Source: Candidatus Altiarchaeota archaeon (lineage in GTDB: Archaea; Altiarchaeota; Altiarchaeia; IMC4; QMZM01). Taken from it: a stretch of DNA of 41,846 bases. Below the pieces are notes generated by a model, which ran no database searches, was not told where the DNA came from, and saw only the letters and a list, made by a program, of their open reading frames with translations. Location of the stretch: the NCBI GenBank assembly GCA_016931955.1, contig JAFGDV010000016.1, forward strand, positions 1 through 41,846, given 5' to 3'. This document shows, in pieces, positions 21-14,605 of this stretch; position 1 is the first letter of the stretch; every line of letters begins with the position of its first letter. Made by a program: the position numbers and the translations under genes.

Positions 21-225
21 GATGAACCTTTTATGAAAAGGTTCCTACGAGTACGGACGCATAAGTGTGAGAACCTACGATTCTCCCCCTTTACCAACAT
101 AAGGGCACCTTATGCCCTTATCAACCCTAAGAATCTGCCTTCGGCAGATTCCCGTTTTCGCCAGCCTTTTCCTAAAAGGCTGTGATGCAACCTTTTATGT
201 AAAAGGTTCCTACGAGTACGGACGC
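21..225. repeat. Intergenic cluster of palindromic (REP-like) hairpins with a 25-bp direct repeat
   Basis: AAAAGGTTCCTACGAGTACGGACGC occurs at both 36-60 and 201-225. Perfect inverted repeats lie at 24-44, 99-121, 131-151, 162-182 and 189-208. Confidence 0.85.
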
Positions 226-306
226 GTGTTTATGTTTGTGTTGTAGGAAGTTATACGTATTCTATTCTTAAATTTCTCCTCTCATCTATTAACTAAGGTG
301 ATAATG

Positions 307-972
307 ATGGGTAACGTGATTATTCTGAATTTTAAGACCTATGAGGAGTCAACTGGAGATAAAGGATTAAAGCTGGCTAAGATCTGTGAGGAGGTTGCTG
401 AGGAGACTGGTGCAGAGATTATTGTGGCAGCGCAACTCTCCGACATATACCGAATCAGTCAGGTGGTGAAGATCCCAGTCTACGCGCAACACATAGACAA
501 CATAAAGTATGGGAGTAGCACTGGGCATGTTCTGGCGGAGGCGGCGAAGGCTGCCGGCGCAACCGGTTCATTGATAAATCACTCTGAACTCAGGTTGAAG
601 CTGGCAGACATTGAAGCCAATGTTGAGAAGTTGCTAGGTCTGAGTATGACTTCCGTCGTCTGCACGAACAACGTGAATACGACTAAGGCTGCCGCGGCTT
701 TGAAGCCAGATTATGTGGCGATTGAGCCACCCGAGTTAATAGGTAGCGGTATTTCAGTGTCTAAGGCGCAGCCTGATATCATATCTGGGAGCGTGGAAGC
801 CGCGAAGAAGGTTAATCCCCAAATTAGGGTATTATGCGGTGCGGGGATAAGCACTGGCGAAGACGTCCGGAAGGCTGTAGAACTGGGCGCCTGCGGCGTT
901 CTCCTAGCGTCTGGGGTGATTAAGGCGAAGGATCCCAGAGCGGTGTTGATGGATTTGGTTGAGGGGGTTTAG
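307..972 (+). CDS. tpiA: Triosephosphate isomerase, archaeal type
   Basis: Motifs ILNFKTY (Lys), INHSE (His), AIEPPELIG (Glu), CGAGI and LLASG. Start moved to ATG 307, behind a GGTGA Shine-Dalgarno (SD)-like site. Confidence 0.97.
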   Translation: MGNVIILNFKTYEESTGDKGLKLAKICEEVAEETGAEIIVAAQLSDIYRISQVVKIPVYAQHIDNIKYGSSTGHVLAEAAKAAGATGSLINHSELRLKLADIEANVEKLLGLSMTSVVCTNNVNTTKAAAALKPDYVAIEPPELIGSGISVSKAQPDIISGSVEAAKKVNPQIRVLCGAGISTGEDVRKAVELGACGVLLASGVIKAKDPRAVLMDLVEGV

Positions 973-2024
973 GTTATTCTATGGCTCCTGTAGTCTTCCA
1001 CGATTTTTTCGAGTGAGACTGCCGCCTTGGTCAGCTTGCTGATATCGTCCGCTGAGATGAAGTAGCAGCCGGAAACCTCCCTCAGGTATTCGATGCCTGT
1101 GACAAAGATGTTTCTACTGGCAAGGATACTGTGGTTTGCTTTTTCGGGGGTGAACGCAACCTTCACCTTATCTAGAAGATCAAGGTCCTTCTTCTTCAGC
1201 CTCCTCAAGACGACGGTGTAGCCGTTGTAGACTTCAGGGAATACGCCTATTGGTTTAACTTCGCCCTTAGACAGTTTCTTCCAGAGTCTGCTTAGTTCTT
1301 CCAAGTCCTCTAGACGGTTTCTCATATGTTGGAGAGAGGACTCCATGCTTTTGAGGGAGAAGTCTCTCCTCTTTATCTCATCCTCTCTTCTGAGCTCGAC
1401 CCTGTATGCCCGCTTAGTCGCTGAAATCTTCTTCAGTAGATCCCTGATTTCTCTGTCTCTCTCTTCAAGCTGCTTCCTTAGGGAAAGGTTCTGTTTCTCA
1501 AGTCTGCGGATTTGTTTCTCTTCTTCCGTAGGTTCTCTCTCCTCCCTAAGTGGGGGCTCTATAACAGCTTCTGGTTCCTCCTCTTGGAGCATCTTCTTGG
1601 CTTCGCTGGTTGAGTGACCCTGCAAGACCAGGTGTTTGACGTCGTCTCCAAGATTCATGGAATCGATCTTCTGAAGCCTGTTCTTGAACCGATTGAACGT
1701 GAATAGGGCTGCTGCCAGAGAATCCCTCTGATGGGCGTCGGATGTCTTATGGTTTCGTGTAAGATCGATTTTCTCAGATACGGAGAGTGATTCAGGTGGA
1801 GTATAGACTCTGGCTCCAAGCTGTGCCGCAAGCTTGGAGACGAAACCTGGGGCAGGGTTCACGTCGGTAGCTATCACGGACGACCTGCCTGATTTAACCA
1901 ATCTATGGATTATCTTGTCCATGCTGAGGTCTTTGGAGCTGAATAAGTCAACAGGTTCGCCTCTGAAATTCAACACCGCTACTCCTGTTGTTGTCCCCGG
2001 ATCAACGCCAACAATGAGATACAA
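969..2024 (-). CDS. DUF460-type RNase H-fold protein with coiled coil
   Basis: N-terminal IVGVDPGTTTGVAVL, IATDVNPAP and HQRDSLAAA motifs, followed by a long coiled-coil segment. Confidence 0.85.
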   Translation of the reverse strand: MYLIVGVDPGTTTGVAVLNFRGEPVDLFSSKDLSMDKIIHRLVKSGRSSVIATDVNPAPGFVSKLAAQLGARVYTPPESLSVSEKIDLTRNHKTSDAHQRDSLAAALFTFNRFKNRLQKIDSMNLGDDVKHLVLQGHSTSEAKKMLQEEEPEAVIEPPLREEREPTEEEKQIRRLEKQNLSLRKQLEERDREIRDLLKKISATKRAYRVELRREDEIKRRDFSLKSMESSLQHMRNRLEDLEELSRLWKKLSKGEVKPIGVFPEVYNGYTVVLRRLKKKDLDLLDKVKVAFTPEKANHSILASRNIFVTGIEYLREVSGCYFISADDISKLTKAAVSLEKIVEDYRSHRIT

Positions 2025-2035
2025 TTTAACCAGAT

Positions 2036-3397
2036 TCAGACGTTTAATTTAAGCTGCTCCTCCTTTATGGGATAGGATCCGTTCACGCATGCGAGACATA
2101 GATTCTCTGCAGGCAACCCTATGGCCTCAACCAGGCTGTCTATGGTGTTGTATGCTAGAGAGTCTGCGCCAATCTCTTTCCGGATGTCTTCGACCCCTTT
2201 TTTCTGGGCTATGAATTCCTCAGGTGTCTGCATGTCGATCCCATAATAGCAGGGGTTCTTTACCGGAGGACAGCTGACCCTCACATGGACTTCTGCGGCT
2301 CCGAAATCGCGGAGCAGGTTTATGATCCTCTTAACGGTTGTGCCCCTGACGATGGAGTCGTCCACTAAAACCAGCTTCTTGCCCTTTATTTCGCTCCTGA
2401 TGGGGTTCAGTTTTATTCTGACGCCGACGTCCCTCTCCGCCTGCTTCGGTAGTATGAAGGTTCTGCCAAAGTATCTATTCTTAATCAAGCCTTCACCGTA
2501 TAGGATACCAGAAGCCCTAGAGTAACCGATTGCTGCCGTAATCCCGGAATCTGGGACGGCGACGACCAGGTCGGCTTCGGCTGGAGCCTCCCTGGCAAGT
2601 ATCTCCCCGAGCTTCCTCCGGACCCCATAAACTGACACTCCATCGATGACTGAATCGGGTCGAGCGAAATAAACGTACTCGAACATGCAGTGGCATTTCC
2701 TCTCCTTCCGCGTCCTATAGGATTGGAGGGTGTCGCCTATTACGACGATTTCTCCAGCCCTGACGTCCCTCACCAGCTCGGCATTTACTGCGTCAAGTGC
2801 GCAACTCTCTGATGCGACATAAAAGGAATCATCTAACTTGCCCAGCACAAGGGGCTTGAATGCCCAGGGGTCGCGGACGGCGATGATGTTATCTCCTTTC
2901 AATATGACAAGTGAGTAAGAGCCTTTGAGCTGATTCACGGCCTGCTTCACGCCTTCAATGAAGTCCCCCAACCTGAGATGCTCCTGCGCAATCAGTTGAG
3001 CGATTATTTCCGTGTCTGAGGTGGTTATGAAGACGCTCCCCCTGGACTCCATCTGATGCTTCAGTTCCTCTGTATTCACAAGGTTCCCGTTGTGGGCGAG
3101 GGCGAAGCTGCCTTTGGCGTAGTTTATGACCAACGGCTGAGCGTTTTCTACGTCGGATGATCCGCTGGTGGAGTAGCGGACATGGCCTACGCCGGCGTTG
3201 CCCTCCAAGAAGACCCCCTTAAAGACTTCACAGACGAGGCCTTCGTCTCTGTGAAGGTTTATGCCGCTGTTGTAGGTCGCGATCCCAGCAGCCTCCTGGC
3301 CGCGGTGCTGCATAGAGTAGAGAGCGTAGTATATGGACTCAAAAACAGGTTTATCGGAGCGGACGCCGAAGACTGCACACTTTTCCCTACCAGCCAT
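2036..3397 (-). CDS. purF: Amidophosphoribosyltransferase (Fe-S type, short propeptide)
   Basis: Motifs EKCAVFG (Ntn nucleophile Cys), QHRGQE, GHVRYST and VDDSIVRGTT (PRPP loop), plus the Cys ligands CMFEY, CYYGID and CLAC. Confidence 0.98.
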   Translation of the reverse strand: MAGREKCAVFGVRSDKPVFESIYYALYSMQHRGQEAAGIATYNSGINLHRDEGLVCEVFKGVFLEGNAGVGHVRYSTSGSSDVENAQPLVINYAKGSFALAHNGNLVNTEELKHQMESRGSVFITTSDTEIIAQLIAQEHLRLGDFIEGVKQAVNQLKGSYSLVILKGDNIIAVRDPWAFKPLVLGKLDDSFYVASESCALDAVNAELVRDVRAGEIVVIGDTLQSYRTRKERKCHCMFEYVYFARPDSVIDGVSVYGVRRKLGEILAREAPAEADLVVAVPDSGITAAIGYSRASGILYGEGLIKNRYFGRTFILPKQAERDVGVRIKLNPIRSEIKGKKLVLVDDSIVRGTTVKRIINLLRDFGAAEVHVRVSCPPVKNPCYYGIDMQTPEEFIAQKKGVEDIRKEIGADSLAYNTIDSLVEAIGLPAENLCLACVNGSYPIKEEQLKLNV

Positions 3398-3432
3398 TAT
3401 GTTATTATTTGAGTTTCAAATTAAATAATTAA

Positions 3433-4590
3433 GTGATGAAAATGGAGCGCTTGGATTCTGGTGTGTGCATAGGAGGCTTCAAGGCTTACGGGGTCAGGGA
3501 AGGCAAATACGGTGTGGCATTCATCGTCTGCGATCAGGTGTGCGATGTGGCTGCCGTTTACACTAAGAGCAGCGTCAAGGGGGCGCATATCCTCGTAGAC
3601 GAAAAGAAACAGAGTAATGGATTGCAGGCAATCATCGTCAATTCCGGTAACGCGAACGCCTACGTCAAAGACGGGGTGCAGGATGCTGAAAGAATGTGCG
3701 AGATAGCAGCCAAAGAGCTGGGCATTAAGGCAGAACACGTCGGCGTGGCGTCCACTGGGATAACCGGAAGAAAACTGGATCTGGAGAAGATTGAAAAACT
3801 AGTTGGGAAAGCAGTATCCAAGCTGACGTATTCCGCTGAAGGAAGCAGAAAAGCAGCTGAAGCCATCATGACGACGGATACGAAAGTGAAGGAATTGTGC
3901 TTCGAACACAATGGCATAAGGGTTGGAAGCATAGCTAAAGGCGCTGGGATGATCGCCCCAGACCTGGCGACGATGCTCTGCTTTCTGACGACCAACGCAG
4001 ACCTGGACAGAGAAGAACTGCAGAAGGCCCTTGAAAGAAGCGTAGAAGACAGCTTCAACATGCTCGTAGTGGACGGAGACATGAGCCCAAACGATACCGT
4101 GCTTTTGATGAGCAACCGGAAGAAAAAATGCAGCCTAGAGGACTTCCAATACATACTGGATCACACAACCAAGGAGATGGCTAAGTTGATGGCATGGGAT
4201 GGGGAAGGGGCGACGAAGTTCCTGGAGGTCGAAGTCAAAGGGGCGAGGAGCAGAGAAGAAGCCAAGGCCGCTGCTAAAGCAGTGACCTCATCCCCTCTGG
4301 TCAAGACTGCATTCTACGGAGAAAACCCGAACTGGGGAAGGATAGTTGCCGCAGTAGGGTCAAGGATCGGATTCAGCCTAGAAAAAATAGACTTGTTCTT
4401 CGAGTCAGGAAAACAGAGGGGGCAAGTTGTTGAAGGAGGTGTGGGTGGAGACCTGGAGAAGGCTGCTGAAATCCTGAAAAACAAGGAGATAAAGGTGATA
4501 ATAGATTTGAACGAGGGCGACTGGAAAGCGACAGCTTGGGGCTGCGATCTAACTGAAGACTATGTGAAAATAAACGCGAGGTATAACTGA
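3433..4590 (+). CDS. argJ: Ornithine acetyltransferase / N-acetylglutamate synthase
   Basis: Motifs NSGNANA, ASTG, IMTTDT, KGAGMIAPDLATML (autocleavage Thr), DGEGATK and NWGRI. Confidence 0.97.
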   Translation: MMKMERLDSGVCIGGFKAYGVREGKYGVAFIVCDQVCDVAAVYTKSSVKGAHILVDEKKQSNGLQAIIVNSGNANAYVKDGVQDAERMCEIAAKELGIKAEHVGVASTGITGRKLDLEKIEKLVGKAVSKLTYSAEGSRKAAEAIMTTDTKVKELCFEHNGIRVGSIAKGAGMIAPDLATMLCFLTTNADLDREELQKALERSVEDSFNMLVVDGDMSPNDTVLLMSNRKKKCSLEDFQYILDHTTKEMAKLMAWDGEGATKFLEVEVKGARSREEAKAAAKAVTSSPLVKTAFYGENPNWGRIVAAVGSRIGFSLEKIDLFFESGKQRGQVVEGGVGGDLEKAAEILKNKEIKVIIDLNEGDWKATAWGCDLTEDYVKINARYN

Positions 4591-4591
4591 T

Positions 4592-5206
4592 ATGAGGATA
4601 CTGGGACAACACATCAGGTTCATTGATCTAATGATCATCGTAAACGTCTTCGTCTACATCATGGGGCTGGGAACATACAGTATCCCAGACAACTTCGGAT
4701 TGTGGCCAGCCATGGTATTCACAGAGCCCTGGCGGATGATAACAAGCATGTTCATACACGGAAGCTTCGGTCATCTCCTGATGAATATGCTAGCACTCTA
4801 CTTCTTCGGGATGTGGATGGAAAGGATAGTAAGCGAGAGAGAGGTGATAAATATCTACTTCATAGGAGGCATCGCAGGTTCACTCTTTTATGTCTTTTTC
4901 GCCTTTTTAACACCTTTCGCATCGATAGACACCATAGCCGTAGGTGCCTCAGGCGCCCTCTTCGCTGTAGGCGGGGCTCTGGCAGTCATGAAACCCAACA
5001 TACGGGTTCTTATATTCCCCTTCCCCGTACCATTACCCCTCTGGCAGGCAGAGATTGTGATATTCTTCCTCGTGTCGTTCTTCCCAAACGTTGCATGGGA
5101 GGGTCACCTAGGCGGATTGATCGCTGGTGCGATCTTGGGCTACTACTACAAGAAAAAAGTGATAAGGGTCCCGGAGATAGTGTACTTCACGACGAGACAC
5201 TATTAG
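4592..5206 (+). CDS. Rhomboid intramembrane serine protease
   Basis: Motifs PWR, HxxxxHxxxN, GASG (catalytic Ser) and GHLGG (catalytic His); multiple TM segments. Confidence 0.95.
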   Translation: MRILGQHIRFIDLMIIVNVFVYIMGLGTYSIPDNFGLWPAMVFTEPWRMITSMFIHGSFGHLLMNMLALYFFGMWMERIVSEREVINIYFIGGIAGSLFYVFFAFLTPFASIDTIAVGASGALFAVGGALAVMKPNIRVLIFPFPVPLPLWQAEIVIFFLVSFFPNVAWEGHLGGLIAGAILGYYYKKKVIRVPEIVYFTTRHY

Positions 5207-6982
5207 TCAGCTATTGAAGTACTCATTCCATGACCTGACCTGGACCTCCCTGTTCTTGACCTGTTCTACGGCGTTCGCCGCCGCTGACGCGCTAGCTAAA
5301 GTCGTTATGTAGGGAACGTTCAACTCAACAGCACTGCACCTTATCATGTATCCATCCCTCCTCTGCTTTCTACCAGCAGTCGGTGTATTGATTATCAAGC
5401 TGATGTGTTTATCCCGCATCAGGTCAAGAACATTCGGCCTACCCTCACTTATCTTAAGGATCTTCCTGTTCTTGACGCCGTTCTCAGCCAAGTAGTCGGC
5501 TGTGCCGGCAGTCGAGATGACCTCGAAACCAAGCTCTGAGAACTTTCTCGCGATCTTCAGGATCCCTGGTTTATCCTTCTTCCTGACGCTTATGAAGACT
5601 GTGCCACTTAGTGGCAGCTCATTTCCTGCAGCTAACTGGGCCTTATAATAGGCCATCGCGAAGTCACGGTCTATGCCCATAACCTCCCCAGTAGACTTCA
5701 TCTCAGGCGATAAGACCGGATCCACACCAGGAAGCTTAATGAACGGAAAAACCACTTCCTTAACAGCCACATGCTTTATCTTCTTCATCGGCTCCATGTC
5801 TTGGACGATGTCCTTTATCTTCATCCCAACCATGATCTTGGCCGCGATCTTCGCCAGGGATATGCCAACCGCCTTGCTCACGAAGGGAACAGTTCTGGAA
5901 GCCCGCGGATTAGCCTCAAGCGTGTACACCACACCATCCTTGATAGCGTACTGTATGTTAATCAAGCCCCTCGTATTTAATGCAATAGCAAGCTTCTTTG
6001 TATACTCTATAACCCTGTTCACGATCTCCTCCTTAAGGGTCTGTGGGGGAACAACGCAGGCTGAATCCCCTGAATGAATCCCCGCTTCTTCGATGTGCTC
6101 CATGATCGCCCCTATCAAGACAGTCTCTCCATCGCAGACAGCGTCGACGTCAAGCTCTATCGCATCCTGCAGGAACTTGTCAATGAGGATCGGGTGCTTC
6201 GGCGAAACCTTGACCGCCTCCTTCACATATTCTTCAAGCTCTATTTCGTCGTGGACTATCTCCATGGCCCTTCCACCAAGAACGTAACTAGGCCGAATGA
6301 GAACTGGGTAGCCGATTTTCGCGGCAATATCCTTCGCCTCCTTGAAGCTGCGACCCGTACCCCATTCAGCAGAAGGCATACCCAATTTAGCTAGGATTTT
6401 CCCGAAGAGGTCTCGGTTCTCTGCTAAGTCGATGTCCTCGGGCCTTGTACCCAAGATGTTCACCCCGTGCTCTTTCAGGAGCATTGCGAGGTTTATGGCA
6501 GTCTGGCCACCGAACTGAACCATCACACCCAACAGGTTCCTTGACTCCTCCTCCACGACATTCAACACGTCCTCGAGCGTCAGGGGTTCGAAGTATAGCT
6601 TATCCGATATGTCAAAATCGGTTGAGACCGTCTCCGGGTTGTTGTTTATCACTATGGTTTCAAACCCAGTCTCCCTCAAAGCGAACACTGCCTGAACCGT
6701 GCAGCAGTCGAATTCAATGCCCTGCCCTATCCGAATAGGTCCTGCGCCAAGGATTATGACCTTCTCCCTGTCAGATACCTCGACTTCATCCTCTTCCTCA
6801 TATGTCGAGTAATAGTATGGCGTCTCTGCATCGAATTCCGCAGCACAGGTGTCGACCATCTTGTAGGTGGGTTTTATCCCTGCTTTCTTCCTTGACTCTC
6901 TGACCTTGTCTTCATCCCCCAATTGCTTGTCGAGGAAACCCATCTGCTTCATTTCCCTGATCTTATCCTTATCCTCTTTCAT
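5207..6982 (-). CDS. carB: Carbamoyl-phosphate synthase large subunit, C-terminal half (split carB)
   Basis: Motifs KMVDTCAAEF, GPIRIGQGIEFD, NPETVSTD, HIEEAGIHSGD, NPRASRT, PEMKSTGEVM and an MGS domain. Only 591 aa with one ATP-grasp unit. Confidence 0.95.
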   Translation of the reverse strand: MKEDKDKIREMKQMGFLDKQLGDEDKVRESRKKAGIKPTYKMVDTCAAEFDAETPYYYSTYEEEDEVEVSDREKVIILGAGPIRIGQGIEFDCCTVQAVFALRETGFETIVINNNPETVSTDFDISDKLYFEPLTLEDVLNVVEEESRNLLGVMVQFGGQTAINLAMLLKEHGVNILGTRPEDIDLAENRDLFGKILAKLGMPSAEWGTGRSFKEAKDIAAKIGYPVLIRPSYVLGGRAMEIVHDEIELEEYVKEAVKVSPKHPILIDKFLQDAIELDVDAVCDGETVLIGAIMEHIEEAGIHSGDSACVVPPQTLKEEIVNRVIEYTKKLAIALNTRGLINIQYAIKDGVVYTLEANPRASRTVPFVSKAVGISLAKIAAKIMVGMKIKDIVQDMEPMKKIKHVAVKEVVFPFIKLPGVDPVLSPEMKSTGEVMGIDRDFAMAYYKAQLAAGNELPLSGTVFISVRKKDKPGILKIARKFSELGFEVISTAGTADYLAENGVKNRKILKISEGRPNVLDLMRDKHISLIINTPTAGRKQRRDGYMIRCSAVELNVPYITTLASASAAANAVEQVKNREVQVRSWNEYFNS

Positions 6983-7022
6983 CAGTATATATCTTTAGAT
7001 GTGTTCAATATATTTTGAGTAT

Positions 7023-7919
7023 ATGATGGACTTCAAGAAAACCAAGGAAAACGTGATGCTCTTCTGGGAGCTGCTGAGGATGAGGAACGGGTTAATAGCA
7101 TTCTTCGGCGTATTGGTTGGAGCCTCATTCATCTACACCGAAGGCACACCAATACATTGGGCTTCCGTTTTCATAGCAGGTTTCTCTGCCTTCCTGATAA
7201 CTGGCGCAGGAAACGCATTAAACGACTACTGTGATTCAGAGATAGACAGGATAAACAAACCGAATAGGCCCATACCCTCCGGCAGAATATCCCGCAGCGA
7301 TACACTGATGCTCTCAACAGTCTTATTCCTCTTAGGCCTTGGTTTCTCCAAGTCGATCAACGACCTCTGTCTAATGATAGCATTCCTGAACTCCATCATC
7401 CTAGTAGTCTATGGAATCTACTCAAAGAAGATGCTCTTAGTGTCAAATCTAGGGATAAGCTTCCTCGTATCCTCTCTGTTCGTGTTCGGCGTTGCGGCAA
7501 CAGTCCAAGAGGGGGAGAACATACTACAGAAATTTGGGGTTGAAGGAATAAGCCTCATCACAATCATAACAGCATGTGCCTTCCTCATAACCATGGCAAG
7601 GGAGGTAATAAAAGACATCGAGGATATAAAAGGGGACAAAGAAAAATACGCAGTAACCCTACCAATAAGCATAGGAGAAACCAGAACAAAAAAAATCGCC
7701 TCAGCTTTTACATTAATTGCGATACTATTAAGCCTACTACCATTTATCATACGAGTCGGGGCCTTCAACCTCTACGTCTACGGCTTCATCCTGTTAATCG
7801 CTGACCTGATATTCATCATCTCGCTCACCATGCACCCCTCCCTAAGCCAGAGGATGATGGTATTAGGCATGGGCTTCGCGCTATCCGCCTTCTTCCTAGC
7901 CAACATCTTAGCCCTATAG
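7023..7919 (+). CDS. UbiA-family prenyltransferase, probable digeranylgeranylglyceryl phosphate synthase
   Basis: Asp-rich motifs NDYCDSEIDRINKPNRPIPSG and REVIKDIEDIKGD; about 8-9 TM segments. Start taken at ATG 7023. Confidence 0.88.
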   Translation: MMDFKKTKENVMLFWELLRMRNGLIAFFGVLVGASFIYTEGTPIHWASVFIAGFSAFLITGAGNALNDYCDSEIDRINKPNRPIPSGRISRSDTLMLSTVLFLLGLGFSKSINDLCLMIAFLNSIILVVYGIYSKKMLLVSNLGISFLVSSLFVFGVAATVQEGENILQKFGVEGISLITIITACAFLITMAREVIKDIEDIKGDKEKYAVTLPISIGETRTKKIASAFTLIAILLSLLPFIIRVGAFNLYVYGFILLIADLIFIISLTMHPSLSQRMMVLGMGFALSAFFLANILAL

Positions 7920-7967
7920 TAGCACCAAATTTAATGAAGACATTCTAAATTATAACTCAACTAAAAC

Positions 7968-8065
7968 GCCCTCGTAGCTCAGGCACCCTTTTCTTTACGA
8001 AAGAAAAGCGTGCACGGAAAAGAAAAAGTTGGTATCCTAATGCCGACTAAAAAAGACAAAAACAA
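7968..8065 (+). pseudogene. Decayed tRNA-Thr duplicate (5' part) interrupted by a palindromic hairpin
   Basis: 7968-7982 is identical to the first 15 nt of the tRNA at 8078. It is followed by a hairpin (7983-8013) and then TTGGTATC...CGAC-A-run, matching the anticodon loop and intron of the intact gene. No T-arm or 3' acceptor strand. Confidence 0.6.
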
Positions 8066-8077
8066 AAATTTATACAT

Positions 8078-8169
8078 GCCCTCGTAGCTCAGCCTGGTGG
8101 AGCGCTTGCTTGGTATCAGAAAAGACGACAAAAAGCAAGAAGCCCCGGGTTCAAACCCCGGCGAGGGCT
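8078..8169 (+). tRNA. tRNA-Thr(GGT) with an 18-nt intron at the canonical 37/38 position (8116-8133)
   Basis: Acceptor GCCCTCG/CGAGGGC, D-stem GCTC/GAGC, anticodon stem CTTGC/GCAAG with TT-GGT-A, T-arm CCGGG-TTCAAAC-CCCGG. Discriminator T; no encoded CCA. Confidence 0.93.
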
Positions 8170-8206
8170 AAAGCACTTTCTTTTTTTCCTAAAAAGAAGG
8201 GTGTAT

Positions 8207-8256
8207 CAGCAAGACGCTTAGCGTCTTGTCTGAGTCGAAACTAAAAGTTTCGCTCA
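8207..8256. repeat. Twin bulged-hairpin element, copy 1
   Basis: CAG-CAAGACGC-TTA-GCGTCTTG-(T)-CTG overlapping TGAG-(T)-CGAAACT-AAA-AGTTTCG-CTCA. A homologous inverted copy lies at 41770-41821. Confidence 0.8.
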
Positions 8257-8276
8257 TCATCCCAGAGAAAAACGTT

Positions 8277-8352
8277 GAATTTGCCTTAGGCAAATTCTTT
8301 TTGATCAACCTTTTATAAAAAGGTTGTGAAGCAACCTTTTACGAAAAGGTTG
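8277..8352. repeat. Triple-hairpin palindromic module homologous to 131-208
   Basis: GAATTTGCC-TTA-GGCAAATTC, CAACCTTTT-ATA-AAAAGGTTG and CAACCTTTT-ACG-AAAAGGTTG. Confidence 0.85.
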
Positions 8353-8361
8353 GGGTTGAAA

Positions 8362-9198
8362 ATGGCTGGAGAAAAACTAGTGTATCGAGGAAAATCAAAG
8401 GATGTTTATGAGATAAGTAGGGGAGAACACGCTGGAAGATACCGCTTTGTTTTCACAGACAGGGCGACTGGTTATATTGAAGATGGAAAGCCTGTCTTCG
8501 ATCCAGGATACGACGTCGTCGTCGGTGAGATTCCAGGAAAAGGAGCCATAGCATGCGGGTTTGCGACATACTTCTTCAAGCTCTTACAGGATTATGATAT
8601 CCCATCACACTATATCGAAACCGTAGGCGACAACGAGATGATCGTCAAACCCGCGACGCCGATAAGCATGCCAGCTGAGGCGCCGGAATTCGAAGGAGCA
8701 GCTCCCATGCAGAACATCGAGTGGACTTGGAGGAACAACACACAAGGAAGCTTCTGGCGCAGGTATCCATTCGTGAAACCCGGCAAGAATCTCAATCAAG
8801 TGGTTGAAGCATGGACTAAGGGAGCATCAGACACTCTCATAACATTCGAGGCACTGGAGGCTTCAGGAGCGATGACCAAGGGGGAGATAACATACTCTGA
8901 AAAACTCGTCAAGGATATCGCCGAAATCGTAAGCAAGGAATTCACGTCGAAGGGACTGCACGTAGTGGATGGAAAATTCGAGCTCGGAAGGCTGAAGGGA
9001 GGTAGCGGAGAAATCGTATTGATAGATGAAATATCCCCAGACGTGCTGAGGGTGTGTAAGGGGTATGTGTCAGGAGAAAACGGCGACTGCAAGTCTTACA
9101 GGAAATGCATAAACACAAGCCTAATCGACGGTAAAAGAACAATAAAAGCCAGAAACCTGCTGACCGCCAGCGACCTGCAGGAGATATTCCTAAGATAA
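8362..9198 (+). CDS. purC: SAICAR synthetase
   Basis: Motifs YRGKSKDVY, FTDRATG, IPGKG, VDGKFELG and LIDEISPDVLRV. True start is ATG 8362; the upstream extension runs through palindromes. Confidence 0.9.
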   Translation: MAGEKLVYRGKSKDVYEISRGEHAGRYRFVFTDRATGYIEDGKPVFDPGYDVVVGEIPGKGAIACGFATYFFKLLQDYDIPSHYIETVGDNEMIVKPATPISMPAEAPEFEGAAPMQNIEWTWRNNTQGSFWRRYPFVKPGKNLNQVVEAWTKGASDTLITFEALEASGAMTKGEITYSEKLVKDIAEIVSKEFTSKGLHVVDGKFELGRLKGGSGEIVLIDEISPDVLRVCKGYVSGENGDCKSYRKCINTSLIDGKRTIKARNLLTASDLQEIFLR

Positions 9199-9199
9199 T

Positions 9200-9772
9200 C
9201 TATTTCTCTTTTATCTTACATTCCTCCAGTTCTTCCGGCGATATCTTCATTTTATCCCTGAGTTCCTCGAATTTGCTGTCGTCGTAGGTGCAGCAATCAT
9301 ATCTTGAGATGAACTCCAACCACCACTGAGGAATCTCTTTCCTTATGCTTTCATAGATCCTAAACGCTTTTTCCTTGAAATCCTCAGAAAGCCTATGAGC
9401 CATCGGGCAGTTCTTGTAGTCGACGAAAATCCTGACCTCATCACCTGAAAGCCCGACGAGAACGGGATAAAGCATACCACTTATCGGCTTGCAATTGAAT
9501 TTCTCCAACTCGCACCTGTTCTCCTTGTCTAGGAAAGGACAATCCCCTGCAAGCTTTATCATGTAAACCTCCTCCCCCCGAAATTCGACTATGTTACAGA
9601 CCCTGTCTATGAATTCCTGAGGAGTTAAGTCAAGTTTTTTTGCTATGAACTCCACCTCGCCGGGGAGAAACAAGGCTATCTGATCTCTCTCGCATTTACC
9701 ACCGCATTCACGGCATAAATCAACAATCAAGCCGTCGAATTCCTGATGAATCCGCTCAAAATCAATCGCCAT
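9200..9772 (-). CDS. YkgJ-like cysteine-cluster (Zn/Fe-chelating) protein
   Basis: CRECGGKC and CPFLDKENRC...KP...LYP pattern. Confidence 0.7.
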   Translation of the reverse strand: MAIDFERIHQEFDGLIVDLCRECGGKCERDQIALFLPGEVEFIAKKLDLTPQEFIDRVCNIVEFRGEEVYMIKLAGDCPFLDKENRCELEKFNCKPISGMLYPVLVGLSGDEVRIFVDYKNCPMAHRLSEDFKEKAFRIYESIRKEIPQWWLEFISRYDCCTYDDSKFEELRDKMKISPEELEECKIKEK

Positions 9773-9816
9773 ATAACATAATAGGCTGCAAAAGATAAAG
9801 GAGGGTATATTAAGCC

Positions 9817-10083
9817 ATGAGGGGAGTTATTAATATGGGCTTCTTGGATAGGTTGTTTGGGTTTACAAGATCTTTGTCGAGGGGCAGATACGCATCCTTC
9901 GAAGGACTTCTATCAGGCAAAATAAGGCCGGCATCAGAGTTGGAGGTCAGAGACCAGCTGCTGAGGCTGGCGGAAAAAGATGAAAAACTCAGGAAAGCGT
10001 TGACTGCTTACGTAGAATCCGGCGAATACAAGAAGAGCCCCTTCATAAAAAAAGAGGGGGGAAGCAGCGTCATAAAGAGGTAA
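9817..10083 (+). CDS. Small basic hypothetical protein coupled to the AEP gene (alternative start 9835, MGFLDRLFG)
   Basis: SD-like purine runs precede both ATGs. The stop is 1 nt before the AEP ATG. Amphipathic N-terminus. Confidence 0.75.
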   Translation: MRGVINMGFLDRLFGFTRSLSRGRYASFEGLLSGKIRPASELEVRDQLLRLAEKDEKLRKALTAYVESGEYKKSPFIKKEGGSSVIKR

Positions 10084-10084
10084 C

Positions 10085-11281
10085 ATGAAGGACTTAATCC
10101 CAGACCTGAAGTTCCGGCACATAAGGTTCGTCAACCAGGATGGGAGGTTCATCAAAGCCAGGAGAAAGTTCAGATACTATCATGAACTCCTGGAGTTCCT
10201 GAAGAAAAAAAAGGCTGCTGATTCCTATTACTCAACTGCTAAGTGGCTTAATCCTGAGAGGATAACGCAGGAAAAAAAGGAGGGCGACTATGATACCGTT
10301 TTCCTGGGCTGCGACCTGTTCTTCGACGTCGACTCAAATGAGAAAAACATATTCAAGGTCGTGGAGGAAACACGAGAAGGGGTTAAAAGGGTTCTGGATT
10401 TCATCCGCTGGAAGGGGTGGGAGATAAGATACATTGCATTCTCTGGGGCAAAGGGATTCCATGTATCCGTAAAGGATCCACTGGCTTATTCCTCACCTGA
10501 GCCGAAGAAGAGGGAAACTGAAGCCAAAGAATTCAGGGCAAAAATCGCCAGAGAGGTTACTAAGAAAGGCCTTAACGTGGACTTGGGTGTTCTAAAAGAT
10601 GTAAGAAGGATCGTCAGAATCCCGTTCACCTACAACTCCAGGAGCGGCTACATGTGTTACCCGATCCAAGAAAAAGACCTCGACCTGGAACCGAAAGAAT
10701 TTTTAGGTAGAATACCTAAGATAGGTTATGGAGGGACGAGCCCGTTAAAGCGGGCGATGAAGGCGCTTCGCCTGATCAGAAAATCCCTGGCTTGTGGGTT
10801 CCCCTCCACCCCACAGGCTGAGTACTACATCGGCTTCTCTGTTTCCTCTACAATCGCGGGAACAAAAAGACACACTCTGATGCTGGAATTCGACAACAAG
10901 ATAGACATTACAGGTATCATAGATTACCTGGGGGATAGAGAGATTATCCCGTTATACACCTACAGAGACTATATCTCAACCCTCGTTTTTTCGCCGACGG
11001 CCTTAGACAGGGGGATGATATTGAAGACCATGAAGAGATTCAATGCGAGAAACTATAACGCCTTCAAGAAATACTCGCACAGTCTGATGAGGGTGGGGAG
11101 ATTCTATACGCCATCTTTCAGGGAGGTTGCCTGGGAGGTTGAGTGCAGAGAAATCATTGGAAAAACATCTGACAGATATCCCTGCTCAAGGGCGCACTGC
11201 CTCCTGCTGGATAGAGATGATAGAACCAACGTCTGCGGCAGCGAAGAAGTCATAGTCAGGCTTGCCAAGATAACACCTTAG
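10085..11281 (+). CDS. Stand-alone archaeo-eukaryotic primase (PriS-like AEP) with an additional C-terminal domain
   Basis: Motif I DLFFDVD, motif II FSGAKGFHV and motif III DxxxxxDVRRIVRIPFTYN, plus YYSTAKW. About 150-aa C-terminal extension after a linker. Confidence 0.88.
   Translation: MKDLIPDLKFRHIRFVNQDGRFIKARRKFRYYHELLEFLKKKKAADSYYSTAKWLNPERITQEKKEGDYDTVFLGCDLFFDVDSNEKNIFKVVEETREGVKRVLDFIRWKGWEIRYIAFSGAKGFHVSVKDPLAYSSPEPKKRETEAKEFRAKIAREVTKKGLNVDLGVLKDVRRIVRIPFTYNSRSGYMCYPIQEKDLDLEPKEFLGRIPKIGYGGTSPLKRAMKALRLIRKSLACGFPSTPQAEYYIGFSVSSTIAGTKRHTLMLEFDNKIDITGIIDYLGDREIIPLYTYRDYISTLVFSPTALDRGMILKTMKRFNARNYNAFKKYSHSLMRVGRFYTPSFREVAWEVECREIIGKTSDRYPCSRAHCLLLDRDDRTNVCGSEEVIVRLAKITP
10701..10820 (+). 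ncRNA. Putative structured RNA element embedded in the AEP linker codons
   Basis: Four hairpins, a GAUGA...GA kink-turn-like motif and a 7-bp pseudoknot (10729-10735 with 10802-10808). Folded by eye only. Confidence 0.5.
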
Positions 11282-11283
11282 AG

Positions 11284-11913
11284 CTATTCGATTGAGTAAT
11301 CGAGTCTCGCAAGCCCCTTAAGTTTTTCTATCATCTCCCCTGAGGAGTCGAATACTGTGATAGTGTCTACTTCATTGTCCCAGAAGGGGTCTTTCCTGTT
11401 CATGTAGATGCCCTCTTCGGTGTTTAAGCCTTCTCCCGTATGAATCGACACAGAGGCTCCGGCTTTCAGATAGAATTCCGGCAACTCGAACGTGCTCTTA
11501 TAGTTCTTGTTCCTGATCCTCCAACCAGTCAGATTCACCGTATAGTCTCCAGTGTTCTTGAGTATAATCCATTCCTCCTCAAGGAAACTCTTCTCTGGTG
11601 TGTATGGGGACTCAAACTGGTAGCCTGCAATCCTCACGTCACTGCTGGTCTTCAGGATGGGAAGGGTTGTTGTGGAGGTTGTTGTCGTCGAAGTCGTCGT
11701 AGATGTTGACGTAGTAGTTGACGTGGTCGACGTCGTGGTTGAGGAGGATGTTGTAACCGCAGGCTGCTGGAGGCAACAAAAGGAATATGCTAAGAAAACG
11801 AGAAAAACCAAGAGAGCGAAAAAAGCCAAGACAAACAAGGGGGATATCTTCTTAGGTTTTTTGGGTTTCTTAGGAGTCTCCTCTTTAGCGGGTTGGGGGG
11901 TTTTTTCTTCCAT
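11284..11913 (-). CDS. Membrane-anchored lamin-tail-domain protein with Thr/Ser linker
   Basis: TM helix, TTTS-rich linker, EWIILKNTG...VNLTGWRI and WDNEVDTITVFD. Start ATG 11913; the longer ORF overlaps hxlB antisense. Confidence 0.88.
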   Translation of the reverse strand: MEEKTPQPAKEETPKKPKKPKKISPLFVLAFFALLVFLVFLAYSFCCLQQPAVTTSSSTTTSTTSTTTSTSTTTSTTTTSTTTLPILKTSSDVRIAGYQFESPYTPEKSFLEEEWIILKNTGDYTVNLTGWRIRNKNYKSTFELPEFYLKAGASVSIHTGEGLNTEEGIYMNRKDPFWDNEVDTITVFDSSGEMIEKLKGLARLDYSIE

Positions 11914-11980
11914 CCTAATACTACAATGGAATTCCAGCAAATAAAACCTTAATTTATTCGCTGAATGGTAATAGATAAAC

Positions 11981-12571
11981 ATGCCAGTGAAGGTCAAGAA
12001 CGCGATGCGCAGCATAGCCAGACACGTCGACAAGATCATAGAGGAACTGGATAACACAGAGATAGAAGAGATGATGAAGCAGATAAAGGGGGCTGATAAG
12101 ATATTCCTCATCGGCGCCGGCCGCTCAGGTCTTGTGGGTAAGACATTCGCCATGCGGCTTGCGCAGCTTGGACTGACGGTTTATGTTATAGGTGAGAGCG
12201 TAACCCCCGCGATGAGCGACAAGGACCTGCTCATAGCGATATCCGGTTCAGGAGAGACCAGTTCGGTTGTCAACGCGGCGAAGACCGCTAAGGGCGTCGG
12301 TTCTAAGATCTTGGCTGTAACCTCCTACCCAAAATCCAGCCTCTGCAAGGTCGCTGATTCCATCGTCGTAGTAAAGGGGAGGACTAAGATCGACATAGAA
12401 AAAGACCACATAAAGAACCTGATAGAGGGAACACACACCTCTCTGACCCCTTTGGGGACATTATTCGAGGACTCTGTGATGATATTCTTTGATGGGGTCA
12501 CGGCTGGATTGATGACGCGTCTTAGGAAGGGAGAAGCCGACTTGAAGAACAGGCACGCGACCCTTGAGTGA
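11981..12571 (+). CDS. hxlB: 6-phospho-3-hexuloisomerase (SIS domain)
   Basis: Motifs GAGRSGLV, FAMRL, ISGSGET, PLGTLFE and C-terminal RHATLE. Confidence 0.95.
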   Translation: MPVKVKNAMRSIARHVDKIIEELDNTEIEEMMKQIKGADKIFLIGAGRSGLVGKTFAMRLAQLGLTVYVIGESVTPAMSDKDLLIAISGSGETSSVVNAAKTAKGVGSKILAVTSYPKSSLCKVADSIVVVKGRTKIDIEKDHIKNLIEGTHTSLTPLGTLFEDSVMIFFDGVTAGLMTRLRKGEADLKNRHATLE

Positions 12572-13309
12572 TTAATGCATCCTGAACCTTAGTATCTCTT
12601 TTTTTGACTCATCTGAGACATTCACTTCAGTCACGACAAGCTCCCCACCCTCAAGATCCAGGACATTAAAACATGGATAAGACCTTCCCTTTAACCTGCG
12701 GGTAGTGGCCGTTCCTGCGGTGATGAAGTACGTGTCCTCCATGCACCAGATCCAGGGCCTGTGTTTATGGCCTGATAGAACAAGGTTTACGCCAACGTCG
12801 TGGCAGACCTTTAAGACGTCGCCCGCATCCAATGGAATGTGCCTCTCTCTCCCAGTCCCTGGGATCGGGATCAGGTGATGGTGCAGCGTCAGAATCCTCA
12901 GCTTGTCCAAATCGGACAGGGTTTCTTCTATGAGAGAGTAGTTCTCTCTGCCAACATGTCCGTCGCTTATATCTGGTTCGCTTGAATCTATGCCAAGAAT
13001 CTGGACCACTCCGTTCTCGTACACTGGAAACCTTTTCTCAAAGACTTCCTCGAAGAGCCTGTAGCCTTCATTCCTGGCGTCATGGTTTCCAGGGATGATG
13101 ATCTTCTTCCTGACTTTTATGGCGTCAAGGTATTCGACTGCCTGATCATACTCATGCATCAGTCCCTCATAGACGAGGTCGCCTGAGACAATCAACACAT
13201 CAGGATCCAGGTTGTTTATCAAGTCAACGACCTTCTGCCCCCACTCTGGGACATAATACTGAGAAGAGACATGGATGTCGGAGATATGCACCATGCGCAT
13301 GTTTTTCAT
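12572..13309 (-). CDS. Calcineurin-like metallophosphoesterase
   Basis: Motifs HISDIH, SGDL, PGNHD, HHH and SGHKH. Confidence 0.93.
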   Translation of the reverse strand: MKNMRMVHISDIHVSSQYYVPEWGQKVVDLINNLDPDVLIVSGDLVYEGLMHEYDQAVEYLDAIKVRKKIIIPGNHDARNEGYRLFEEVFEKRFPVYENGVVQILGIDSSEPDISDGHVGRENYSLIEETLSDLDKLRILTLHHHLIPIPGTGRERHIPLDAGDVLKVCHDVGVNLVLSGHKHRPWIWCMEDTYFITAGTATTRRLKGRSYPCFNVLDLEGGELVVTEVNVSDESKKEILRFRMH

Positions 13310-13420
13310 TCTATTTTTGGCATAAACAACCACTGCACAGGTTATATATCGCCTGTTGGAGATATAAGCTTATGGGATATTGACATCCATAAATTAACGC
13401 TCAATCACGTATTATTTATC

Positions 13421-14605
13421 ATGACGAAACCGAACATCAGGGATACTGGGTATTATTCATACAGGCTGGGTTCTCTGCCGAAGGGCTGCAAGCTCTGCGT
13501 AAGAGGAGAGAAACTGGTACTATTCATCACAGGATTATGCAACAGAGACTGCTTCTATTGTCCACTGTCGGACGAGAAAAAGAATAGAGACGTGGTCTAC
13601 GCGAACGAATGGAATACCGGTTTCAGTGGAGGAACGCTAACTGAGGAGGAAACCAACACAATCCTGAAAGAAGCCAGGCTCTGCGACGCAAAGGGGGCTG
13701 GAGTAACGGGAGGGGATCCCCTGCTCGTATTAGATAGAACCGTTGAGGTCATACGGAAACTGAAGAAAGAATTTGGGGAAGACTTCCACGTGCACCTTTA
13801 CACGACGCCTGAGAATGTGACAGAGGAGAGGCTTGAAAAGCTGTTTAAAGCAGGACTCGACGAGATCAGATTCCACCCATTAGTGTGGGATGACAGGTGT
13901 TGGGATAGAATAGACCTGGCGAAGAAGTTCAACTGGAGTGTTGGAGTGGAGATCCCCGCCATCCTAGGGTATGAAGAACAGACGAAGAAGCTCATAGACT
14001 TCCTTGAGGGGAGAATAGGTTTCCTTAACATCAACGAACTCGAGCTTGCTGACACGAAAGCCAACAAGCTGCTGGAGATGGGCTACAAGGCGAAGAATGA
14101 TGAATCCTATGGCGTATCGGGCAGCGAGGAACTTGCCCTCTCGCTCATGGAATACGTAAGGGAAAAAGGCTACTCCTTCCGGGTGCACTACTGCACATGC
14201 AGGCTGAAGGATGCCGTGCAGATGAAACAGCGGATTTTGAGGCGCGCCGGCAACGTCGCCCAAAAATTCGACAAGATAACAGAGGACGGCATGCTTGTAA
14301 GGGGTGCCATATATTTGCCTGAGCTGAAACCTGGATTCGGCTACCGTAAGAAACTGATGGAATTGAGTAGAGATGAAAGGGAAAAAATCCTCTCCGATCT
14401 CATGGAAGCGAAAAACAGGCTTATATGGGATAGAATGTTCAGGGGAGATGAGCTTGTAGTAGATGACTTCAAGCTGCGGCTTCTTGCATCTAGGAGGAGC
14501 GTGAAGAAGCTCAGGAAGAGGCTTAAGAAAATAGGCCTTGCCCCTGCGCTCGTGGAAGAATACCCGACAAGAGACAGCCTTGAAGTGGACGTAGAGTTCC
14601 TATGA
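13421..14605 (+). CDS. Archaeal radical SAM protein of unknown function
   Basis: GCKLC, CNRDCFYC (CxxxCxxC) and TGGDP. Start ATG 13421. Confidence 0.92.
   Translation: MTKPNIRDTGYYSYRLGSLPKGCKLCVRGEKLVLFITGLCNRDCFYCPLSDEKKNRDVVYANEWNTGFSGGTLTEEETNTILKEARLCDAKGAGVTGGDPLLVLDRTVEVIRKLKKEFGEDFHVHLYTTPENVTEERLEKLFKAGLDEIRFHPLVWDDRCWDRIDLAKKFNWSVGVEIPAILGYEEQTKKLIDFLEGRIGFLNINELELADTKANKLLEMGYKAKNDESYGVSGSEELALSLMEYVREKGYSFRVHYCTCRLKDAVQMKQRILRRAGNVAQKFDKITEDGMLVRGAIYLPELKPGFGYRKKLMELSRDEREKILSDLMEAKNRLIWDRMFRGDELVVDDFKLRLLASRRSVKKLRKRLKKIGLAPALVEEYPTRDSLEVDVEFL

Follow-up and report, generated by a model that had tools for sequence, protein, structure and literature searches.

Introduction

Does the gene for a primase-like protein of an uncultured archaeon carry, within its own reading frame, a structured RNA that is selected in its own right, and if so, what might such an RNA do there? 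The question is raised by a contig of Candidatus Altiarchaeota archaeon (JAFGDV010000016.1 of assembly GCA_016931955.1, which is 1.55 Mb long and 92% complete); the window analysed here is the whole of this contig, 41,846 nucleotides (41.8 kb). At 10085..11281 on the plus strand it holds the coding sequence (CDS) of a divergent PriS-like archaeo-eukaryotic primase (AEP) of 398 aa, recognised as an open reading frame (ORF), by NCBIfam PriS models and by Foldseek. An original prediction, made from the letters of the window alone, had placed a pseudoknotted RNA bearing a kink-turn (k-turn) on the sense strand inside this CDS, and the comparison of homologous genes upholds it: the fold is conserved, its pairs covary and its characteristic letters are kept independently of the frame in which they are translated. 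A module of ~90-110 nt is written in frame into the inter-domain linker of the AEP, and we hold it to be very probably real and conserved as an RNA. As judged from sequence comparison, the module of the window belongs to a k-turn/pseudoknot RNA family that covariation supports and no catalogue lists. In the following, G000 is the window's own genome, G001 (locus L002) the same-genus genome used for comparison, and L-numbers are other loci, mostly metagenomic.

Results

Anatomy and family-wide covariation of the module

In the window the module opens with the 5' strand of the pseudoknot, TGGAGGG (10729..10735; all its parts are on the plus strand), which is purine-rich in the G000 clade, followed by the dinucleotide GA (10738..10739) that provides positions 2n and 1n of the non-bulged strand of the k-turn and is present in all 5 sequences of this clade. 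Hairpin A, the C-helix of the k-turn (6 bp, 10740-45/10750-55, loop UAAA), leads into a GAUGA core (10756..10760) made of the bulge GAU (10756-58) and the bulged-strand GA (10759-60), within which lies an in-frame ATG at 10757. Hairpin B (5 bp, 10761-65/10769-73, loop CUU, with UUC in the loop conserved family-wide) is followed by the A-rich linker AAAAUCCCU (10774..10788), which contains a conserved AAAAU block and whose last five bases, 10784-88, can pair with 10732-36 instead of the pseudoknot. The module closes with hairpin C (10 bp, 10789..10819), part of the minimum free energy (MFE) structure; its 11-nt loop (10799-10809) holds the 3' strand of the pseudoknot, CCCTCCA (10802..10808), which pairs with 10729-35. 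Hairpin 1, upstream (9 bp, 10701-09/10713-21), is seen to be kept only within the genus and lies outside the family-wide module and outside the covariance model R1 described below. All four hairpins of the original prediction, of which the second, third and fourth are our hairpins A, B and C, are present at the positions it gave, and the MFE structure of RNAfold is the nested structure that it had drawn, with the hairpin 10790-98/10810-18 lengthened to 10789/10819. The predicted complementarity between the 5' strand and the loop of hairpin C is also there, as is the local richness in G+C, 57/92 at 10729-10820 compared to 0.44 and 0.43 in the flanks.

The decisive evidence comes from the homologs, whose AEP proteins are only 30-38% identical. 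Searching metagenome contigs with tblastn gave 388 relatives of the AEP, the best 80 of which were used; 53 distinct metagenomic sequences, none of them from the G000 clade, were aligned with MAFFT without fitting to structure, and 32 base pairs that had been fixed beforehand from one sequence were counted in this alignment. The two sides pair in 85.8% of 1666 cells, whereas partners slid by 1-3 columns pair in 29.6-50.3%, and none of 500 shuffles (mean 71.2%) reached the observed value. Changes on both sides of a pair were found in 256 cells, as compared to 42-74 upon sliding, with double changes in 25 of the 32 pairs; G.U pairs make up 100 of the 1666 cells. Helix B shows both-side changes in all 7 of its modelled pairs, hairpin C covaries in 7 of its 8 inner pairs, and hairpin A varies in length and sequence across the family, again with covariation. 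The pseudoknot helix (columns 3-7/115-119) is 99.2% paired, its pair 5-117 being UA in 35 sequences, CG in 18 and unpaired in none, and as a covarying helix between a hairpin loop and a strand outside that hairpin it is a pseudoknot of the H type.

The order of parts in the metagenomic genes is that of the window, whose element stands at the homologous place in the protein alignment: a 5' strand (mostly RCUCC or RCCCC), four bases ending in GA, hairpin A, a near-invariant GAUGA, hairpin B with a variable stem, a linker containing AAAAU, and a long hairpin C with a loop of 11-12 nt, for example AUUGGGAGUAA or GUUCGGGGUAA, that is complementary to the 5' strand. In two loci, L067 and L074, a stretch of ~21 nt belonging to the hairpin A unit is duplicated in tandem, between the k-turn and the 5' strand of the pseudoknot.

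A covariance model, R1 (99 positions, 24 pairs), was built without the G000 clade. Out of 84 sources it matched the window and 71 other loci (45.8-99.8 bits in the latter), each of them once and within the AEP gene, and it gave no match elsewhere in the 349 kb of these loci. Its best match in the window, 10728-10814 (+), reproduces the order GA, hairpin A, GAUGA, hairpin B, AAAAUCCCUGG and hairpin C. Among the sources without a match are L031, L089 and three contigs that end before the region. A search with R1 of 151 genomes of the phylum of an Iainarchaeum metagenome-assembled genome (MAG) gave no match, an empty result that is uninformative.

In the G000 clade the pseudoknot has inverted polarity, with a purine-rich 5' strand and a pyrimidine-rich loop. 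Its letters differ by lineage (UGGAGGG/CCCUCCA, AUGGGGGA/UCCUCCAU, AGGGG/CCCCU and UGGAAG/CUUCCA), and the partner strands co-vary in G001, L036 and L039/L042. The inversion reads as a compensatory change of the whole helix and accounts for the low score of R1 on the window.

No catalogued family covers the module. At gathering threshold, Rfam 15 found only a tRNA in the whole window, and a search of 4227 Rfam families with E up to 10 against 10400-11100, L072 and L081 gave at best 15.8 bits for a threshold of 45. In the literature searched, mostly at title and abstract level, archaeal primase genes are nowhere described as carrying a structured RNA.

Reading frames and codon usage inside the module

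As coding constraint mimics conservation, RNA folds within a CDS are hard to prove. Here the gene family itself provides a control. The GAUGA core is read in phase 2 (..E-M-T..) in 42 and in phase 0 (G-D-D/E) in 24 of 66 full-length CDS with the region, as counted by an automated pick with at least one mis-pick (L111), and a reading in the remaining frame would include a UGA. No such change of frame is seen in the blocks that precede hairpin A or lie in hairpin C. At residues conserved to at least 80% in 59 main-clade CDS, synonymous sites are frozen inside the module: the median normalised codon entropy is 0.47 for 7 conserved columns within it and 0.86 for 62 outside (Mann-Whitney p 3e-4, a value that ignores phylogeny). 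One Arg of the module is AGG in 57 of 58 sequences; elsewhere, a conserved Arg is encoded by four to six different codons.

The peptide encoded here, which had been described as linker-like, is just that in an AlphaFold2 model, where residues ~211-245 form the only internal stretch of low confidence, with the predicted local distance difference test score (pLDDT) below 50 at 216-218 and 230-241. Since the ORF is open through the module in all 66 CDS, the module is certainly also translated. These patterns show selection to act on the RNA and not on the encoded peptide. The use of two reading frames, the swapped polarity of the pseudoknot and the disordered peptide together make this a clean example of an RNA that dictates protein sequence.

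Comparison within the genus

G001 is syntenic with 214-14317 of the window at ~69% nucleotide identity, and the two AEP proteins align without gaps at 65% identity. When the MFE structure of G000 is projected on G001, hairpin A keeps 6/6 pairs, 5 of them changed, hairpin 1 keeps 9/9 with one double change at two synonymous sites, the hairpin 10790-98/10810-18 keeps 8/9 and hairpin B 4/5. Between 10784 and 10798 the loss of one base and the gain of another, 8 nt from each other, amount to a compensated frameshift, which leaves the nucleotide sequence of the 5' arm of hairpin C in place while the peptide changes from SLACGF to SWLEGF.

As a control, pairwise RNAalifold consensus structures were computed for 950 windows (475 positions on both strands) over ~11 kb of synteny. 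On the plus strand, the window at 10724 reaches a consensus energy of -31.65 and that at 10704 one of -31.25, ranking first and tied second of 950, and their structure conservation index (SCI) is 0.78 at 68-72% identity, compared to a 99th percentile of 0.73; the minus strand of the same windows reaches only 0.48-0.57. Double changes in these pairwise structures were not used as a measure, since 5-9 of them are found in many windows of no special note. The only rival region is 5572-5770 (-) in the carbamoyl-phosphate synthase gene, with energies down to -31.25 and SCI 0.72-0.84; the identity between G000 and G001 is higher there (78-82%), which may cause its score.

The kink-turn and the alternative pairing

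The letters of the k-turn are near-invariant in the 53 homologs, with A1n in 53/53, G2n in 50/53, G1b and A2b in 51/53 each, a GAU bulge in 51/53 and U:A at -1n:-1b in 53/53; two of the exceptions are one-base shifts of the alignment. The pattern of the window is shared by G001, L036, L039 and L042. In the window a Watson-Crick C-helix precedes the three-nucleotide bulge, and the tandem G.A/A.G that follows is given, at the level of letters, by 10759-60 opposite 10738-39. The original prediction was thus right that the window holds a k-turn, and right that GA stands at both 10759-60 and 10774-75, but it had the wrong partner: the k-turn is built on hairpin A with 10738-39. A k-turn on hairpin B with GA 10774-75 is rejected, as that GA is lost in G001 and in the wider family.

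Beyond the G.A pairs only the 3b:3n position pairs (columns 28/61; G:C in 38, U:A in 5 and G:U in 2 of 53). As hairpin B and the pseudoknot strand follow it at once, the k-turn stands at a three-helix junction and is k-junction-like. According to PMC6298567, a Watson-Crick 3b:3n pair prevents ion-induced folding of a k-turn, and the k-turns of l7ae leaders fold only with L7Ae. Applied to the Watson-Crick 3b:3n of most homologs, this rule predicts that most members of the family should need a protein to kink, and we lean, with moderate confidence, towards a protein-dependent k-turn. The genome has two genes of the L7Ae family (PF01248); its L7Ae is encoded on contig C46 (13749-14018).

A further part of the original prediction was a switch, in which AGGGA 10732-36 would pair with TCCCT 10784-88 and so replace the pseudoknot. 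The pairing does exist in G000, and a pairing of the 5' strand with the UCCCUGGG linker recurs in one large clade with limited covariation, but in G001 the helix is broken at the same columns, where only 2/5 of its pairs are kept; inspection by eye shows that GGAUU and AAUCC could pair there in a shifted register. The largest clade offers the 5' strand and the k-turn GA (CCCAGGAU) another partner in the linker, AUCYCUGGG, and this pairing could not coexist with the k-turn, with the pseudoknot or with the base of hairpin C. Counted as six pairs over the 53 sequences, this alternative helix is 82.1% paired, compared to 60-63% after a slide of one column. Covariation is seen at one pair (C-G in 33, A-U in 10, G.U in 5), and three of the six pairs fail in 22-23 sequences. 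We regard a two-state switch as no more than possible.

Strength of the signal in the window and its limits

Taken by itself, the element of the window folds well. Its MFE at 10701-10820 is -47.5 kcal/mol (z -3.14), a value reached by none of 200 dinucleotide shuffles. When codons were resampled with the protein fixed and the codon usage of the contig, 9 of 500 sequences folded as well over 10700-10819 (z -2.27) and 2 of 500 as low over 10727-10819 (z -2.92). The element is single-copy, blastn of a 130-nt stretch finding one copy in the assembly. Of the checks that the original prediction had named, covariation, conservation of synonymous sites and comparison with codon-shuffled sequence thus speak for the RNA, and the search of Rfam gave no family near threshold.

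Several observations have to be set against our reading. In a GC-corrected scan of 8346 windows of 120 nt on both strands, the window at 10701 takes the 0.56th percentile, and its score is equalled or bettered in ~8 separate regions of the contig. A pairing of at least 7 bp between the 14 nt 5' of the k-turn and an 11-nt loop arises in 550 of 5000 composition-preserving shuffles, such pairings being common because the 5' strand is G-rich and the loop C-rich. The sequence of the window alone thus exceeds chance only mildly, and its pseudoknot, taken in G000 alone, is not significant. R1 matches the window only marginally, with 14.8 bits (E 0.052 for 60 kb, 0.31 for 349 kb), and a search of the whole own genome with R1 returns nothing at E<=1, the element itself included, so that R1 is too weak at genome scale for the G000-type variant; it also misses G001, L034-36 and L039/41/42, whose modules were recognised by a simple script and by eye. 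On the minus strand the helices of the main clade pair in 83.4% of cells, compared to 85.8% on the plus strand, and since the two are nearly equal the strand call rests on the k-turn letters, the UUCG-like loops and the asymmetry of SCI between the strands in G000/G001. In the window itself, the 3b:3n position of the k-turn is A.C and not a Watson-Crick pair. Finally, L089 has lost the part with the k-turn and hairpins A and B, and the AT-rich L031, from the Iainarchaeum MAG, has lost the conserved letters, both with an open ORF, indicating that the module is not indispensable to the protein.

The host gene and its surroundings

The NCBIfam PriS models cover only the N-terminal part of the AEP (5.7e-13, far under cut-off), and Pfam DNA_primase_S gives 17.3 bits; since these hidden Markov model scores are under the curated cut-offs, the AEP is a divergent member of PriS. 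An AlphaFold2 model based on 70 homologs has a mean pLDDT of 88.1 and with Foldseek gives 55 PDB matches at E<=0.001. The top matches are PriS chains (5of3_A, 4.9e-9), the best being PriS of Saccharolobus (S. solfataricus), Pyrococcus and human. D81, D83 and H126, which we take to be the acidic and His catalytic motifs of AEPs, are invariant across the 70 sequences. As a canonical PriS gene (PF01896, 55 bits) is found on another contig of G000 (C13, 21333-21992, -), the AEP of the window is a second, extra paralog.

The family is patchy. It occurs in 3 of the 61 genomes covered for the whole phylum, only 6 proteins of a 5.8-billion-protein collection match the AEP of the window at E<=1e-10, and a search of contigs with the single AEP protein found one distant homolog only. 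Viral contigs gave only distant AEP catalytic domains and none of this AEP family. One ORF spans the region in all 83 matching loci where the contig allows, and no split genes were found there. The AEP of L064 has an in-frame TAA at codon 143, in the catalytic domain (a pseudogene or an assembly error), with an intact RNA module that scores 77 bits with R1.

The neighbours of the AEP in the window are housekeeping genes (SAICAR synthetase, UbiA, carbamoyl-phosphate synthase, SIS and metallophosphatase). Directly upstream, a small ORF of 88 aa (9817..10083, +) abuts the AEP start, and a homologous small ORF of 75-162 aa ends at or overlaps the AEP start in 15 of 15 loci aligned (the window, L036, L043, L044, L049, L057, L066, L067, L077, L084, L087, L091, L094, L095 and L109). 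The 15 proteins share a C-terminal block of ~65 residues, one of them has an N-terminal zinc ribbon, and none matches a Pfam family above cut-off. The product is probably a partner subunit of the AEP, as the fixed gene order suggests.

Elsewhere in the window, the most stable 120-nt stretches are at the ends of the contig (11-250 and 41641-41840, GC-corrected z -4.3 and -5.1, minus strand). The A/T-rich spacer between a tRNA and the SAICAR-synthetase gene (8200-8330) holds four short perfect hairpins, and its fold signal is among the strongest of the contig (GC-corrected z ~-4, both strands). The tRNA gene, 92 nt long (8078-8169, +; 54.6 bits with Rfam) and followed by a run of seven T at ~8181-8187, was missed by ARAGORN, presumably due to an intron after the anticodon.

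Discussion

What, then, may the module do? Our favoured guess, which we hold tentatively, is that it acts in cis on the AEP mRNA as a ribonucleoprotein (RNP) of the L7Ae type. The module runs from the 5' strand through GA, hairpin A, the GAU bulge, the second GA, hairpin B and the linker to hairpin C, whose loop pairs back with the 5' strand. The k-turn would kink on binding a protein of the L7Ae family, and once it is kinked the pseudoknot would lock a compact RNP in the middle of the mRNA. Such an RNP might throttle or block translation between the two protein domains, or it might control the stability of the mRNA, and the alternative pairing of 5' strand and linker would then be the unbound state. 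Loops and linkers are conserved, however, and the information content of the module is high for a mere roadblock, which counts against this proposal.

The closest known system is the k-turn operator in the leader of l7ae mRNA (PMC5539422, PMC6298567). There as here an mRNA k-turn is predicted to fold only with a protein of the L7Ae family; a stem-loop caps one arm, and control is translational and in cis, the same as we propose for the AEP. Unlike the l7ae operator, the module lies deep in a CDS, has two more hairpins and a pseudoknot, and belongs to a primase-like gene, and protein binding is here a prediction only.

In its architecture the module also recalls other k-turn RNAs. K-junctions and hairpin-capped k-turns such as the 5' stem-loop of U4 small nuclear RNA combine GA/NNN-GA with a loop-closed C-helix and a non-canonical arm that runs into other helices. 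The module shares this signature and the three-helix junction, with no sequence relation to U4-type k-turns, and its non-canonical arm consists of G.A, A.G and one pair only, after which hairpin B and the pseudoknot helix begin. GAUGA is also the 3' five letters of the C box RUGAUGA, and G001 reads AUGAUGA, the main clade GAGAUGA. A box C/D small RNA was considered and rejected: the alignments have no conserved CUGA (D box), no C'/D' pair and no guide regions, and no Rfam C/D family rises above noise on our sequences, the best being sR3 with 7.7 bits on the wrong strand.

A close rival, which we rank next after the cis-acting RNP and regard as possible though rather less likely, is a separate small RNA of the sense strand, either made from a promoter inside the AEP gene or cut from the mRNA, that acts in trans or joins the AEP and the small upstream protein as their RNA subunit or cofactor. 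An A/T-rich box, GAAUUUUUAGG (10697..10707, +), is a candidate for an internal TATA-like promoter, and it too weighs against a module confined to the mRNA: in the family it precedes the first conserved bases of the module by a constant 21-27 nt, and the main clade reads RAAAUAMUUAAAU. The archaeal TATA box is A/T-rich and centred ~26 nt upstream of the transcript start, a distance that the box fits. An octamer of pure A+T lies at -34..-19 in 48 of 70 CDS, compared to ~11% expected from the density along the gene, and the Ile codon of the box is ATC in 2 of 55 sequences, compared to 13-33 of 51-59 at other conserved Ile outside the module. In one clade oligo-T runs directly follow hairpin C. 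The module is single-copy and strictly co-inherited with the pair of AEP and small ORF, it is rich in information in its loops and linkers, and guide or scaffold RNAs are known to overlap the genes of the proteins that use them.

The box, however, also encodes a conserved I/F-L-K helix, so that selection on the protein may account for it. A T-run behind the module is lacking both in G000 and in the largest clade, and the module is also translated. Two metatranscriptome runs and the DNA run showed no coverage of the locus, a result that is neutral on this point. In the boldest version of the small-RNA proposal, which we consider speculative and rather unlikely, the module would be the RNA subunit of a hitherto unknown primase-like RNP with L7Ae, the AEP and the small upstream protein, and the second, non-replicative AEP would need it for its work, for example as scaffold, primer or template. 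Such an RNP, if it exists, would make this AEP the first of cellular origin to work with an RNA of its own, and the module a cellular example of an RNA gene lying in frame within that of its protein partner.

A ligand-sensing, riboswitch-like or a self-cleaving RNA inside the coding region would account for the conserved single-stranded blocks and, in one clade, for an alternative helix exclusive with the pseudoknot. K-turn and pseudoknot are typical of several riboswitch aptamers; in SAM-I and c-di-GMP-II the k-turn bends a helix so that its loop or a neighbour forms a pseudoknot, and the module shares this combination. Unlike these aptamers, it has no match in Rfam, where three representatives were searched as described above, and does not lie upstream of a regulated ORF; a position inside an ORF is atypical for riboswitches, and no conserved signature of a cleavage site was recognised. 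We regard this explanation as improbable.

Still less probable is a functionless relic of a selfish palindromic insertion in frame, like the Rickettsia palindromic elements, to which the disordered linker, the two homologs with intact ORF and no module, and the pair with a duplicated hairpin A unit might point. Mobile elements leave many dispersed copies, whereas there is one copy in the genome and none elsewhere in the 349 kb of flanks. The module sits at the same site across proteins only 30% identical, and the covariation, near-invariant k-turn letters and frozen synonymous sites bespeak long purifying selection on the fold.

We find it no more credible that the module acts at the level of DNA, for instance by single-strand hairpins that serve as a priming or origin signal for the encoded primase. 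The gene is primase-like and, in the main clade, the minus strand pairs nearly as well as the plus strand, but the GA and GAUGA letters and the UUCG-like loops make sense only as sense-strand RNA, the SCI of the plus strand exceeds that of the minus strand, and G.U pairs are present.

Recoding or internal initiation, both raised by the original prediction, fares worse again and is very doubtful. Pseudoknots are classical stimulators of frameshifting, and in G000 GGAGGG stands 21 nt before the in-frame ATG 10757 with hairpin A between them, as if a Shine-Dalgarno sequence were bridged to a start codon. Yet this AUG is part of GAUGA and is out of frame in 24 of 66 homologs, and the 5' strand of the main clade is pyrimidine-rich and not Shine-Dalgarno-like, and on these grounds a bridged start at 10757 is rejected. 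By eye, no slippery heptamer is conserved in the 60 nt upstream in 62 sequences, and the genes are unsplit in the 83 loci; the run A-TTT-TTA of G000 lies 24 nt upstream of the structure, inside hairpin 1, whereas 5-9 nt is the spacing of a -1 frameshift site of the form X XXY YYZ. A likeness of AUGA...GA to a selenocysteine insertion sequence was likewise discarded, there being no in-frame UGA. That the fold is a chance product of complementary Gly (GGN) and Pro (CCN) codons and local G+C, as the modest single-sequence statistics might allow, is for practical purposes refuted by the covariation, the frame-independent conservation, the synonymous constraint and the first rank among 950 windows.

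Covarying RNA folds inside cellular protein-coding genes are rare. Known RNA structures in coding regions include the picornavirus cis-acting replication element (cre) and the HIV Rev response element (RRE), and the guide RNAs of TnpB and IscB overlap the end of the gene. Like these, the module is a structured RNA that shares its nucleotides with the ORF of an enzyme of nucleic acids, RNA and coding sequence being under joint constraint. Unlike the viral and transposon cases, it belongs to a single-copy chromosomal gene in housekeeping surroundings in uncultured archaea, lies in the linker between two domains, and is read in two frames across clades.

The comparison adds an uncatalogued RNA family, with at least 71 loci and 388 related metagenome genes, that is tied to a patchy second primase-like enzyme of uncultured archaea with small genomes. 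It offers a directly testable case of a k-turn and L7Ae on an archaeal mRNA outside the l7ae leader, and should the RNA prove to be a partner of the enzyme, a new field of study would open up for the AEP superfamily.

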